This document shows, piece by piece, positions 9,494 to 17,799 of a stretch of 30,560 nt of DNA. The stretch's first letter is position 1. The number at the start of each line of letters is the position of its first letter. Source of the DNA: a bacterium (GTDB lineage Bacteria; UBP7; UBA6624; JBBIMK01); NCBI GenBank assembly GCA_037444445.1, contig JBBIMK010000023.1:1-30560 (forward strand), read 5' to 3'. The notes under the pieces are model-generated. The model ran no database searches, was not told the origin of the DNA, and saw only the letters and a program-made list of their open reading frames with translations. The position numbers and the translations under genes were made by a program.

Positions 9494-10627
9494 ATGAACA
9501 AGCGGGAAGGGTGGATGGGATTTTTGCTGATTTTTATAGCGGTAACAGCCCGGGTGCAGGTAGCCAGCCTTACGGGGCTACGCTTCGGGCAACACCCGGA
9601 GAGAACCCGGATCGTGCTGGATTTCCTCGGCATCCCTCCCGAATACAGCATTCAGGAAGGGAAGGATAGGGTGGAGATACTGGTGAAAAACTCCAGCACC
9701 ACCAGGCCCGGTCCCTGGCCGATTACCGATGTTCGGGTGAAGGAAATTTCTCTCTCCACCGAGGGAGGGATGGCACGGGTCAGCATTCGCCTGAAAAGGC
9801 CGGTAAAAGTTTCCGCTTCTGTCCTCCGGGAGCCCTACCGCATTGTTCTGGATTTAACGGATAAAATCGGGGAAGAGAAACCCGCCCCTGCTCATCTGTT
9901 AGGGGTGGAAAGAGTGCCTCAGGAAAACGGAGAACGGTGGGTGCTCACCTTTGACCGAATTCCACCCTATACTTCCTCAGAAGATAAAACCGCTGATTTA
10001 TTCTGGATAGATTTTATCGGAACAGAAATGCCCGAGGAAACTCTTCAGAAACAATGGCAGGATTCACTCCAATTTTCAGCCACATCGGATGGACTTCGGA
10101 TGAAAATCCTCCTCAAGGGTGTGCAGGTGGAAAGATTTTTCCCCCTCCCCCAGGAAGAAAAAATCATTTTCAATTTTCAAAATATCCCGGGAGCCATAGC
10201 TGGGGCAACTTCTGAGAAACCTGCGGAGGAGCCTTCCGGGAAGGGACCTTCTCCCGCAGAAGGTTTCACTCCCTCCACTCTACCTGAACCTCAGGAGGTG
10301 ACTCTTTTCCAGTCTCAGGAAGAAATTCTCCGGGCAGTCACCGGGGAGGTAAAGGGCAAGGAAACCTATCTAACCTTAGAGTTTTCCCAGCCTGTGAATT
10401 TTATCGCTCGGAGCCAGCCTCCTTCCTACCGCCTTGTATTTCTTGACCTTTATTTACCGGACATTCCCGAGCCTCTCATCCGACTCCCCGGGGTGGAATC
10501 TTTCCGGATTTCCAGCGTGCCTGCCGGGAGCCGGTTCACTCTTACTCTTGCCGAATCCTATCGGGTGATTCTCGTTGCCCAGACGATGAAAATCACTCTG
10601 CAAATAAAACCGGAGGAAATTCATTGA
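9494..10627 (+). CDS. Secreted protein with AMIN-like repeats and no secretin or amidase domain
   Basis: N-terminal signal peptide (WMGFLLIFIAVTARVQVAS). AMIN hallmarks are present: LTGLRFGQHPERTRIVLDF...ARVSIRLKRPVKVSASVLREPYRIVLDL. Two further AMIN-like segments follow (ERWVLTFDRIP...; ETYLTLEFSQPVNFIARSQPPSYRLVFLDL). Confidence 0.7.
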   Translation: MNKREGWMGFLLIFIAVTARVQVASLTGLRFGQHPERTRIVLDFLGIPPEYSIQEGKDRVEILVKNSSTTRPGPWPITDVRVKEISLSTEGGMARVSIRLKRPVKVSASVLREPYRIVLDLTDKIGEEKPAPAHLLGVERVPQENGERWVLTFDRIPPYTSSEDKTADLFWIDFIGTEMPEETLQKQWQDSLQFSATSDGLRMKILLKGVQVERFFPLPQEEKIIFNFQNIPGAIAGATSEKPAEEPSGKGPSPAEGFTPSTLPEPQEVTLFQSQEEILRAVTGEVKGKETYLTLEFSQPVNFIARSQPPSYRLVFLDLYLPDIPEPLIRLPGVESFRISSVPAGSRFTLTLAESYRVILVAQTMKITLQIKPEEIH

Positions 10628-10677
10628 AAACTCACAGATTTTTTATCAAATTTTCATATATCGGGCGTTTAATAGTA

Positions 10678-10686
10678 TGGTAGAAT
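10678..10686 (+). promoter_or_regulatory. Candidate extended -10 promoter (TGgTAGAAT) for the pseudopilin operon
   Basis: TG at 10678-10679 and TAGAAT at 10681-10686, in the 75-nt AT-rich gap after the AMIN gene. There is no clear -35. Confidence 0.4.
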
Positions 10687-10732
10687 TTGGAAAAAGAAGG
10701 AGATGAAACCTGAAAAGATGGGGGTGAACGGG

Positions 10733-15220: not shown

Positions 15221-15247
15221 CTGACACGGAAAAAAAGGGAGTATAAT
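15221..15247 (+). promoter_or_regulatory. Possible internal promoter upstream of the ATPase gene (CTGACA-15 nt-TATAAT)
   Basis: CTGACA at 15221-15226 and TATAAT at 15242-15247. The 15-nt spacer is shorter than optimal, so support is weak. Confidence 0.3.
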
Positions 15248-15274
15248 TCCGAGTAGAGGAGTGGTGTTTTCCTG

Positions 15275-17401
15275 ATGGGGAAAAAGCTTTTAGGTGAGAT
15301 TCTCATAGAAGAGGGGTTGCTCACCCCGGCTCAGTTGAATGTGGCCCTGCGGGAGCATAAGCGAACGGGAGAACTCATCGGGCAAACCCTCCACAGGCTG
15401 GGGTTCGTCACGGAAGATGCAGTGATGCGAGCCCTGGCAAACCAGGCGGGCATCCCCTACACCAATCTGGAAAACATGCTCATAGACCCCTCCGCAGTTA
15501 GGACCATCCCTGTGGAACTCGCCAGAAAGCACAAAGTCCTTCCCCTCGGAATCACGGATGGCACACTCACGGTAGCGGTCAGCGACCCCCATGATATACT
15601 CATTCTGGACACCCTGCGTAAAATCACAGGCTATCAGAATATCTCCCGAATGGCTTCCAATGAAGAAACGCTAATGAAAGCCATAGATATGTTTTATGGC
15701 ATCGCAACCACAGAGAACATCATAGAAGCCAGCATTCAGGAAGCGGTGCGCAGTGAGAAGAGTGCAGATGAACCCGACCCTCCCATCATCCGCCTGGTGA
15801 ATCACCTGATCATTGAAGCCATAAAGAAGAGGGGAACCGATATTCACATAGAGCCTGATGAACGCATCAGCCGGGTCCGCTACCGGATTGACGGAGTTCT
15901 GCACGCAGGTCCTGTCATTCCAAAACTCATACACCCGGCGGTGGTAGCCCGGGTCAAAATTATGTCCAGGATGGACATCGCCGAGCAGCGTCTTCCACAG
16001 GATGGCGGAGCCACCTTCTCTTATATCAATCGGGAACTGGACCTGCGGGTCAGCACCCTTCCCACCCATTATGGAGAAAAATTAGTCATCCGCCTGCTGG
16101 ATAAAGAAAGCATAAAATTAGGGCTGGACTATCTGGGGTTCTCCGAGGAGAATCTGAAACTTTTACGCGCTCTCCTTCAAAAGCCCTACGGGATTATTTT
16201 AGTCACGGGACCCACGGGAAGCGGGAAGACCACCACTCTATATTCGGCGCTATTAGAGCTCAACTCCCTGGAGTTAAACATCTCCACGATAGAGGACCCG
16301 ATAGAATATAAACTTCCACTGATCAATCAGGTGCAAGTGAACGAGAAAGCGGGATTGACCTTTGCCTCGGCACTTCGTTCATTTCTCCGCCAGGACCCGG
16401 ATGTGATACTGATTGGAGAGATACGGGACCGGGAGACTGCGGATATGGCATTTCGTGCGGCAATGACGGGGCATCTGGTGTTTTCCACCCTTCACACCAA
16501 CGATGCTGTCAGCGCCATTCCCCGCCTGGTGGACATCGGCGTTCCTCCCTATTTAATTACCTCCTCCCTGTTAGGAGTGGTGGCTCAGCGTCTGGTGCGG
16601 AAAATCTGCCCCGACTGTAAAGTCCGATACACTGCCTCGCCCGAGGAACTGGCGTTGATGGGCTTGCCTCCCGACCGAGAAATCACTCTCTTCCGGGGGA
16701 AGGGCTGTGAAAATTGTCACAGCACCGGGTATAAGGGACGGGTGGCCATTACGGAACTGTTTGAGATGACCCCTGCTATGCGAAAACTTATCGCATCAGA
16801 GATTTCCAGTGATATGCTGACAAAAGCCGCCATTCAGCAGGGGATGAAAACGATGTATCAGGATGGAATGTTGAAGGTTATAGAAGGTGTGACGACGCTT
16901 CAGGAGATTGGACGGGTGGTGCTGGTAGAGGAAGGGGCAGTGAACCCTGCGAAACTGGGGGAGGCGCTTCCCTCCGTTCCGGAAACAGCCCCCCTCCAGC
17001 ACCCGGAAGCGGAAAGGACTCTCCGGGAGCACAGTTTCTCCTCCCCCGCCCCCGCTCCTTACCAGTCCCTGCTCACCGCTCTGGCGGAGGACATCCCTGG
17101 CTTCCTCTCCGCAGTTGTCTCTCACTCCAGCGGAAAAACTGTCTCCTCCTACTCTCTTTTTGACAGTGTCTCTCTGGACAATCCTGCACCTCTTCAATCC
17201 CTTTTCTCCACCCTTCATCTCCCTTCCCTTTCAGAATTCTCTCTGACCACCTCTCGCTTTTATATCCATATTTACCCATTGCCCCACAAAGACTATTACT
17301 TGATTCTGGCATCCTCCCGAGCCACCACCTCTTCTTCCCAGCTAAAATCCACCATCCAGAAGCACCTGACAAACCTCACCTCACCCGTTCCCGTCCCATG
17401 A
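15275..17401 (+). CDS. PilB/GspE-family type IV filament assembly ATPase with a T2SSE_N/MshEN-type N-domain and an unusual ~160-aa C-terminal extension
   Basis: Walker A GPTGSGKTTT. Walker B DPDVILIGEIRD. His box TGHLVFSTLHTNDA. Tetra-Cys CPDC...CENC. The N-terminus LLGEILIEEGLLTPAQLNVAL...IGQTLHRLGFVTEDAVMRALANQ is typical of the GspE N-domain. The canonical fold ends near ...LQEIGRVV (about 16920). Confidence 0.93.
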   Translation: MGKKLLGEILIEEGLLTPAQLNVALREHKRTGELIGQTLHRLGFVTEDAVMRALANQAGIPYTNLENMLIDPSAVRTIPVELARKHKVLPLGITDGTLTVAVSDPHDILILDTLRKITGYQNISRMASNEETLMKAIDMFYGIATTENIIEASIQEAVRSEKSADEPDPPIIRLVNHLIIEAIKKRGTDIHIEPDERISRVRYRIDGVLHAGPVIPKLIHPAVVARVKIMSRMDIAEQRLPQDGGATFSYINRELDLRVSTLPTHYGEKLVIRLLDKESIKLGLDYLGFSEENLKLLRALLQKPYGIILVTGPTGSGKTTTLYSALLELNSLELNISTIEDPIEYKLPLINQVQVNEKAGLTFASALRSFLRQDPDVILIGEIRDRETADMAFRAAMTGHLVFSTLHTNDAVSAIPRLVDIGVPPYLITSSLLGVVAQRLVRKICPDCKVRYTASPEELALMGLPPDREITLFRGKGCENCHSTGYKGRVAITELFEMTPAMRKLIASEISSDMLTKAAIQQGMKTMYQDGMLKVIEGVTTLQEIGRVVLVEEGAVNPAKLGEALPSVPETAPLQHPEAERTLREHSFSSPAPAPYQSLLTALAEDIPGFLSAVVSHSSGKTVSSYSLFDSVSLDNPAPLQSLFSTLHLPSLSEFSLTTSRFYIHIYPLPHKDYYLILASSRATTSSSQLKSTIQKHLTNLTSPVPVP

Positions 17402-17799
17402 CTGAAGAAAGGTCTCATCCCGCTTCACCCCCCCCTCACCTGATACAAATTCTCAAATCCATTCCAGGCTTCCATCGGATGGATGTGATGAACCTGAAGG
17501 ATAAAACAACCGTTCTATCGGTGCACAGCGGTTTGATGCCAGAGGAGCGGGTGGGAGAACTTCCACATCTTTCTCAAGCACTGTTACACTATGTGAATCA
17601 CACAACCCATGGTGATACCCTGGAGGAGGCCTACTGGATGAATGATGTAGCCGCCTATTTCCTGATTCCCACACCGGAAGGTTCCCACATCATCCTCTTC
17701 GCATTCCGTGTGCAACAATTTGACCTGAGGACCGCACAGCAATCCATTCGCCAGTTTCTCCCCACACTTTTCTCTCACCTGCACGCCACCCTGTCATAA
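17398..17799 (+). CDS. Small cytoplasmic protein, paralogous by pattern to the ATPase C-terminal extension (possible Roadblock/LC7-like fold)
   Basis: The ATG overlaps the ATPase stop (ATGA at 17398-17401). LIQILKSIPGFHRMDVMNLKDKTTVLSVHS...AAYFLIPTPEGSHIILFAF...QQSIRQFL parallels LLTALAEDIPGFLSAVVSHSSGKTVSSYS...RFYIHIYPLPHKDYYLILAS...KSTIQKHL in the extension. Confidence 0.6.
   Translation: MTEERSHPASPPPHLIQILKSIPGFHRMDVMNLKDKTTVLSVHSGLMPEERVGELPHLSQALLHYVNHTTHGDTLEEAYWMNDVAAYFLIPTPEGSHIILFAFRVQQFDLRTAQQSIRQFLPTLFSHLHATLS

Follow-up and report, generated by a model that had tools for sequence, protein, structure and literature searches.

Gene content of the locus

We analysed the 30,560-nt bacterial contig JBBIMK010000023.1 (hereafter the window) and in particular its positions 9494-17799, where seven contiguous and tightly packed genes on the + strand encode an AMIN-domain protein, four pseudopilins, an assembly ATPase and a small protein. 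A preliminary description, made from the sequence alone, had read this block as a minimal, atypically composed type IV filament locus. The listing of open reading frames (ORFs) together with Pfam and NCBIfam scans bears out the gene block as it was described, as well as pyrD and moaE as its flanks (Table 1), and supports a type IV filament locus of unusual composition. What is atypical is the gene content and not the base composition, the GC content of the block (0.50-0.55) being the same as that of the protein-coding flanks.

For two of the pseudopilin genes, comparison with orthologs argues for a start other than the one in the ORF list: ~10733 is favoured over the listed 10703 for pseudopilin 1, and the N-termini of the orthologs favour 11853 over 11769 for pseudopilin 2. 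A promoter and terminator scan of the window returned fewer matches than shuffled sequence did; one promoter-like site, at 9453-9481, is well placed. At the other end of the block, moaE begins 7 nt past the small gene and may be co-transcribed with the filament genes.

Table 1. Genes of the filament locus, its flanks, the platform gene found elsewhere in the window and the second PilB-like gene of related loci (L numbers denote loci or contigs from other genomes and metagenomes)
Feature	Position	Strand	Remarks
AMIN-domain protein with signal peptide, 377 aa	9494-10627	+	first gene of block; PF11741
Pseudopilin 1	10703-11848	+	T2SSG (PF08334) and N_methyl domains; signal ...KKAG↓FTLVE
Pseudopilin 2	11853-12902	+	T2SSG (PF08334); signal RKG↓VTFVE
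Pseudopilin 3	12909-14012	+	T2SSG (PF08334); signal RKG↓FTLME; paralog chosen for structure prediction
Pseudopilin 4	14027-15136	+	T2SSG E 2.7e-13; RG↓EILVA, without Glu5
PilB/MshE-type assembly ATPase, 708 aa	15275-17401	+	MshEN and T2SSE domains
Small ORF, 133 aa	17398-17799	+	4-nt overlap with ATPase stop (ATGA)
pyrD	8554-~9456	-	upstream flank
moaE	17807-18262	+	downstream flank
Orphan divergent GspF/PilC-type platform, 379 aa	27778-28917	-	PF00482 matches twice
Second PilB-like protein in relatives	L026 12495-14111; L029 12507-14120; L028 12635-14290; L031 12632-14281; L033 4185-5831		directly 3' of small gene

Four large pseudopilins built on a duplicated GspG module

The four pseudopilins are paralogs of ~350-380 aa (~365) that are 28-35% identical over their full length and have conserved cysteines. 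L001, L003, L026 and L029 have one-to-one orthologs in an unchanged order, at 39-46% identity compared to ~30% for the paralogs; for pseudopilin 1 the identity to the orthologs in L003, L026 and L029 is 43-46%, again compared to ~30% for the paralogs. Because the ordered one-to-one orthologs are closer than the paralogs, the quadruplication appears to be old and each copy to have been kept individually. Pilins 1 to 3 always carry the G↓F/V-T-x-x-E signal, while Glu5 is absent from pilin 4 in each of the six lineages examined, that of the window included; a six-frame search of the window finds the canonical motif three times. The absence of Glu5 is a pattern known from tip subunits such as GspK, and pilin 4 is a candidate cap or tip subunit.

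The AlphaFold2 (AF2) model of pilin 3 (predicted local distance difference test, pLDDT, 73.5) has a long N-terminal helix and a GspG-type sheet followed by a second helix and sheet and by a beta-sandwich (280-363). Foldseek matches this model to GspG 3gn9 (TMt 0.72), and by profile-profile comparison the two modules are repeats of each other (hhalign 91%, E 9e-7). Judged by sequence and model, each pilin appears to have a prepilin N-terminus followed by a tandem of two GspG-like modules and a beta-sandwich of no established class; the sandwich falls in no Pfam family, matches no PDB sequence profile and gave weak pVHL-type matches in Foldseek. This architecture is nearly unique among 1.84 billion representative proteins, where an exhaustive HMMER search with the C-terminal two-thirds of the pilin as query gave 29 matches, about 10 of them full-length. 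A word-indexed search of 5.8 billion proteins gave 5 matches, and a scan of a genome collection with the pilin alignment, seeded on generic N-terminal motifs, returned ordinary GspG-like N-termini only (27-38% over residues 1-150) and none of full length. On the GspG model the pilins score 37.6-53.4 bits, below its cutoff of 88.85, and the GspH model gave one weak N-terminal match (18 bits compared to a cutoff of 80).

The preliminary description had counted minor-pilin sets among the missing parts. This is debatable, as four conserved paralogs of which one lacks Glu5 resemble a minor-pilin-type quartet; what is really missing from the locus is a small conventional major pilin. One could also imagine that these four proteins are not filament subunits. 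They would then be anchored in the membrane or exported to the periplasm or the surface, just making use of a prepilin-type N-terminus, and the ATPase would display or release them in the manner of a type II secretion system (T2SS). Their length, far above that of typical major pilins, and their extra beta-sandwich would suit such a role, as would the related lineages that run the ATPases and the platform described below without the quartet. We nevertheless find it improbable: in three of the four, the prepilin signal is kept along with the long hydrophobic helix at the N-terminus through which subunits pack in a filament, the fourth shows the Glu5-less pattern typical of tip pilins, and the GspG fold is the fold of a pseudopilus subunit.

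A PilB/MshE-type ATPase with a predicted Roadblock-like domain

The ATPase matches T2SSE (E 5.7e-135) and MshEN (E 6.9e-22) in Pfam. It begins with a cyclic di-GMP (c-di-GMP)-binding MshEN motif (residues 6-57) and an MshEN domain (59-145), followed by the T2SSE core (168-546), a linker (~550-590) and a Roadblock/LC7-like domain (~592-708, nt ~17048-17398). The Walker A, Asp box, Walker B, His box and four-Cys Zn site are all intact, and by these motifs the enzyme appears to be catalytically competent. Binding of c-di-GMP is predicted with a score of 69.1 bits on the binding-motif model NF053729, compared to a cutoff of 38.

The closest solved structures to the core are those of PilF (523 bits) and PilB (481-482 bits), then GspE. 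The protein scores 605.2 bits on the PilB model TIGR02538 (cutoff 675.65), 576.3 bits on the GspE model (cutoff 630.25) and 258 bits on the ComGA model (cutoff 300). With scores below the PilB, GspE and GspG model cutoffs, ATPase and pilins do not fit cleanly into a described clade within the superfamily of type IV filaments (TFF), in keeping with the unusual system that the preliminary description had proposed.

The ~160 extra residues at the C-terminus of the ATPase are confined to its nine closest homologs. The AF2 model of the last ~115 residues (pLDDT 77, predicted TM-score, pTM, 0.69) has an alpha-beta-beta-alpha-beta-beta-beta-alpha topology. With a threshold of E<=1e-3 Foldseek gave 91 matches to it, of which the best 50 are all of the Roadblock/LC7 fold, led by MglC (7ct3), LAMTOR, MglB, Robl and an Asgard Roadblock protein (prob 1.00, E from 3.5e-6, TM 0.60-0.74). 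A Roadblock/LC7 fold of the MglB/MglC kind is thus predicted for this domain. At the level of sequence, searches for membership in Pfam Robl_LC7 gave no Pfam or PDB sequence-profile match even at E<=10. Roadblock proteins (arCOG02603) are often encoded in archaeal type IV pilus loci (PMC4858521), and our full-text literature searches found no description of a Roadblock fusion to a bacterial PilB/GspE-type ATPase.

The small ORF had been described as a paralog of the ATPase, which holds for the C-terminal ~115-aa domain and not for the core. The small-protein family (six members) aligns with the family of ATPase C-terminal domains (hhalign 84%, E 7e-6), and we regard the small protein, from this alignment, as a putative distant paralog of the Roadblock-like domain. 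Paralogy with the ATPase core is rejected, as BLAST gave no significant match. Every related locus has a gene of 118-133 aa at this position, and dN/dS for the small gene of the window is 0.23. The ATGA overlap between the ATPase stop and the start of the small gene suggests that the two are translationally coupled. Roadblock domains act as dimers, as in MglB, MglC and LAMTOR, which points to a heterodimer formed by the motor tail and the small protein; the latter is, by analogy, the presumed dimer partner of the ATPase domain. An MglA-like GTPase was found neither in the window locus nor in any related locus.

In related lineages the block continues into a second ATPase-like gene and a platform gene

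The closest relative, L001 from a Chocolate Pots hot spring metagenome (PMC6137239), is collinear with positions 7490-22407 of the window. More distant relatives (L026, L029/L030, L033, L027/L028 and L031/L032) have ATPases that are 54-61% identical to that of the window, with pyrD adjacent. In these five lineages the small gene is directly followed by a second PilB-like gene and by a gene for a 400-aa GspF/PilC platform. The second PilB-like protein (537-551 aa) retains the Zn cysteines and the c-di-GMP motif of MshEN. It has lost the two histidines of the His box and, in Walker A, the lysine or glycine, a pattern of residues that makes it probably a pseudo-ATPase and a likely partner of the active motor.

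Since the ATPase and small-protein genes of the relatives run into these two genes, we regard the block in the window as the front of a larger conserved operon that is split in this lineage; the linkage to pseudo-ATPase and platform is absent only in the window and L001. Comparison of neighbourhoods across relatives, which the preliminary description had proposed as a check, thus speaks against a minimal, self-sufficient machine, and the linked platform of the relatives means that the system as a whole is not platform-less.

MurG-like GT28 and HldE-like genes lie downstream of the platform gene in relatives. Together with a TonB-dependent receptor on another related contig, L034, the GT28 and HldE-like genes are diderm markers, and the host group is apparently diderm.

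The first gene of the block encodes a secreted or periplasmic protein. Its match to PF11741 scores 28.9 bits (cutoff 20.5), its L001 ortholog is 67% identical and its dN/dS is 0.25. The C-terminal ~100 aa align with a protein designated X in the same position of related loci (BLAST E 4e-7 to L003 u94 and E 0.006-0.02 to L028 X616). We also looked for internal AMIN repeats and found none by hhalign with two sequences. A further observation concerns L028 (8154-10004) and L031 (8334-10004), where a 556-616-aa protein without a Pfam match takes the place of the AMIN protein and the pilins; its C-terminal ~100 aa align weakly with the C-terminus of the AMIN protein.

Components outside the block

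A platform protein (PilC/GspF) was not among the parts that the preliminary description listed as missing. The window does hold one T2SSF gene, the only candidate platform on the contig, which we refer to as the orphan platform. It scores 168 bits on the GspF model compared to 331 for the platform of L026, and on the ComGB model the two score 58 and 133, both below the cutoff of 240. That it is the linked platform of the relatives, displaced, is not supported, given an identity of 26-27% to a family whose members share 52-57% with each other. A metagenome scan with the orphan platform protein returned relatives of 24-31% identity only.

The orphan platform has its own conserved surroundings. 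It lies upstream of uvrA in a mini-cluster (27778-30335, - strand) with a cohesin/PKD-domain lipoprotein gene and a 96-aa ORF. The mini-cluster recurs at 7447-9991 of L034, which comes from the same metagenome as L001, at 84-92% protein identity and with no other TFF genes around; the platform itself is 84% conserved there, beside uvrA. Beyond the point where the window ends, L034 continues with HD-domain proteins and the TonB-dependent receptor and with no further TFF genes. Two of its proteins, encoded at 3707-6603 upstream of the cohesin-platform cluster, are of the HD/HD_5 (HD-GYP-like) kind and may be c-di-GMP phosphodiesterases, a point of note given the c-di-GMP-binding motif of the pilus ATPase.

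The preliminary description had also noted that a prepilin peptidase, the alignment proteins PilMNOP/GspLM, the retraction ATPase PilT and a secretin are missing. We confirm this for the 30.5-kb contig: among its larger ORFs, which were scanned, there is no match to the peptidase A24, PilM/N/O/P, GspL/M, PilT or secretin families. In the seven related loci (+/-10 kb), PilMNOPQ, PilT, PilD and a secretin were likewise not found. In TXSScan, pilD/gspO/comC count as loner and exchangeable genes, and the secretin gspD is likewise a loner in the T2SS model (PMC6668835). As a result, a locus without a peptidase gene is ordinary, and its absence is weak evidence for a minimal system. The alternative already considered in the preliminary description, that the parts are scattered around the genome, holds for this genome, where a platform gene lies 10 kb off on the opposite strand.

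One explanation for these absences is an ordinary type IVa pilus (T4aP) or T2SS whose pilD, pilC, pilMNOPQ, pilT and major pilin genes lie elsewhere, the block being a pilB and minor-pilin locus with lineage-specific decoration. It is typical of a T4aP that its genes are distributed among several loci, and the peptidase, in the T2SS also the secretin, is treated as a loner gene (PMC6668835). The ATPase core is closest to the solved PilF/PilB structures, the platform gene is displaced by 10 kb, and the window is one contig of an incomplete metagenome-assembled genome (MAG), so that any absence is an absence at the level of the contig. Against this explanation, the ATPase and the pilins stay below every equivalog cutoff, the seven related loci lack PilMNOPQ, PilT and PilD but conserve the Roadblock partner, the pseudo-ATPase and the platform, and the architecture of the quartet has no counterpart among known minor pilins. 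We therefore consider an ordinary system rather unlikely.

Selection on the locus

We compared the window with L001 and L034 and obtained dN/dS values of 0.11-0.25 for all seven genes of the block, 0.18 for the orphan platform and 0.075 for uvrA. The cohesin lipoprotein gene nearby gives a similar value, and no gene of the block differs from uvrA by more than about three-fold, suggesting that purifying selection acts on the locus and that it is not in decay.

This result bears on whether the block is a remnant in the window's lineage, one in which platform and second ATPase have been lost and nothing is built any longer. Such a history would account for the downstream pseudo-ATPase and platform being absent only from the window and L001, and for a linked-platform ortholog not being assignable to the window's lineage. 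It is nevertheless very improbable, since none of the seven ORFs is disrupted in either of two genomes that are ~23% apart at the nucleotide level, the catalytic motifs of the ATPase are preserved, and the low dN/dS extends from the block to the orphan platform.

A probable lineage-specific filament operon variant

The gene content, the predicted domain architectures and folds, the synteny and the estimated selection come from sequence, comparison or modelling. Taken together, they make it probable that the block forms the 5' portion of a variant type IV filament operon specific to its lineage, comprising a c-di-GMP-sensing motor of the PilB/MshE type, a Roadblock module, giant pilins and a platform. 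In such a system, a prepilin peptidase encoded elsewhere would process the four pilins, and the c-di-GMP-loaded ATPase hexamer would dock on a platform, be it the divergent one at 27778-28917 or another encoded off the contig. A fibre or a short pseudopilus would then be built by the motor, and the quartet may make up its tip or an initiation complex, capped by the Glu5-less subunit, or else its whole body. It is conceivable that the Roadblock domain of the ATPase pairs with the small protein, giving the motor an MglB/MglC-like module for regulation or localisation, and that the AMIN protein anchors the apparatus to peptidoglycan.

Several observations weigh against this lineage-specific operon. 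In L027/L028 and L031/L032 the two ATPases, the platform and the small protein are retained without a pilin quartet, so the quartet may be accessory and not part of the core of the machine. The search for the linked-platform family found 11 members, none assignable to the window's lineage, to which no pseudo-ATPase ortholog could be assigned either, and the low identity of the orphan platform to the linked family makes its partnership with this ATPase a guess. Neither the contig nor the +/-10 kb around the related loci holds a peptidase, a secretin, alignment proteins or a small major pilin, which leaves the route across the outer membrane without an explanation. The AF2 model of the pilin is of moderate confidence and poor in its C-terminal domain, and the Roadblock fold of the small protein rests on the hhalign match of 84% and not on a model of its own. 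Finally, filament assembly, control by c-di-GMP, the Roadblock pairing, the platform partner in this genome and the outer-membrane route are all things that we infer.

A more far-reaching reading of the same operon is possible, and we put it forward as a tentative one. The system may represent a previously undescribed class of TFF confined to one unclassified bacterial lineage with a close relative from a hot spring. In it, a built-in Roadblock heterodimer of fused domain and small partner and, in relatives, a paired pseudo-ATPase would regulate a c-di-GMP-sensing motor of the PilB type, which would build a fibre made of, or primed by, four giant tandem-GspG pilins, without a canonical alignment complex or a dedicated secretin.

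In Myxococcus, pilus control of the Roadblock/MglB type runs via the separate proteins MglA, MglB and SgmX. If the lineage-specific operon is what we propose, regulation of this type would here be hard-wired onto the assembly ATPase, offering a compact system in which to study control of a PilB motor. The pairing of an active ATPase with a pseudo-ATPase that carries the c-di-GMP motif in the relatives would be a further regulatory design that can be tested. Tandem-GspG pilins with an unclassified beta-sandwich would broaden the known pilin architectures, and the quartet would be a natural case of a minor-pilin-like set derived from duplicated GspG-type subunits. More generally, what looks like a minimal locus on the contig of a MAG can be the truncated end of a larger operon, which comparative synteny reveals quickly.

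Other features of the contig

The remaining genes of the contig include an rRNA operon, PEMT, DUF1646, a HAD hydrolase, a hemerythrin, a fusion of tetratricopeptide repeats (TPR) to a peroxiredoxin, uvrC, DUF502 and uvrA. The 23S rRNA gene (189-4944, - strand) measures 4756 nt compared to 2925 nt for the Rfam model, and has two insertions that each encode a LAGLIDADG homing endonuclease (PF03161 and PF00961; ORFs at 825-1493 and 2217-2762, both on the - strand). Rfam calls one group I intron within the gene, at 1541-1860. Intron-bearing 23S genes are uncommon in bacteria. The 16S rRNA gene (5086-6659, - strand) is separated from the 23S gene by ~141 nt (region 4945-6659), a spacer without a tRNA gene, and the 188 nt remaining after the 23S gene showed no 5S rRNA. 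On the other side of the filament locus, the 3' end of moaE overlaps by 26 nt a convergent 275-aa ORF (18237-19064, - strand) without a family match. The TPR fusion is a 638-aa protein (20533-22449, - strand) that has a C-terminal peroxiredoxin/thioredoxin domain of the AhpC/TSA type and is conserved in L001.

Comparison with known type IV filament systems

Membership of the system in the TFF superfamily is clear, while the T4aP, the T2SS, the mannose-sensitive haemagglutinin (MSH) pilus and the competence (Com) pilus each disagree with it in several of the defining features tested. A PilB/GspE-family AAA+ ATPase is present, and class III prepilin signals are found in three of the four pilins, the fourth being without E5. 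No platform gene lies in the block; the window has the divergent T2SSF gene, and the relatives have a linked platform. A PilD/GspO/ComC peptidase, commonly a loner (PMC6668835), was found neither on the contig nor within +/-10 kb of the related loci.

The best match for the core of the ATPase is PilB (Thermus PilF; Geobacter and Myxococcus PilB), with which it shares the MshEN domains, the catalytic boxes and the tetracysteine Zn site. It differs from PilB in staying below the equivalog cutoff and in its ~160-aa C-terminal extension of linker and Roadblock-like domain, and the system differs from a T4aP in that PilT, PilMNOPQ and PilA are found in or near none of the related loci. With the MSH pilus it has in common the MshE-type c-di-GMP motif, for which binding is predicted and which is carried by the ATPase of the window and by the pseudo-ATPase of the relatives; unlike the MSH pilus, it has no matches to MshA-D, MshI-Q or MshL in the window.

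The T2SS pseudopilus resembles the quartet in its T2SSG domain, in the match to 3gn9 and in the order of four pilin genes of which the last lacks Glu5, analogous to GspH-K. However, the four proteins of the window are mutual paralogs, each with two GspG modules and a beta-sandwich, whereas GspH, GspI, GspJ and GspK belong to four distinct families. The GspE and GspG equivalog cutoffs are not reached, and GspC, GspD, GspL and GspM have no matches.

The Com pilus (ComGA, ComGB and ComGC-GG, with ComC elsewhere) is as compact as the loci of the relatives and like them has neither a secretin nor alignment proteins in the locus and its peptidase elsewhere (PMC6668835). It is, however, a monoderm system, while the host here is apparently diderm, and the ComGA and ComGB scores fall below their cutoffs. 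The pilins here are three times larger than those of the Com pilus, and the relatives add a second, degenerate ATPase to the Roadblock module.

The polarity module MglB/MglC of Myxococcus offers a comparison of another kind. No MglA-like GTPase accompanies the system and no similarity to known Roadblock families is seen at the sequence level, but the C-terminal domain of the ATPase is predicted to have the MglB/MglC fold and a related second protein is encoded next to it, the domain itself being fused here to the assembly ATPase.

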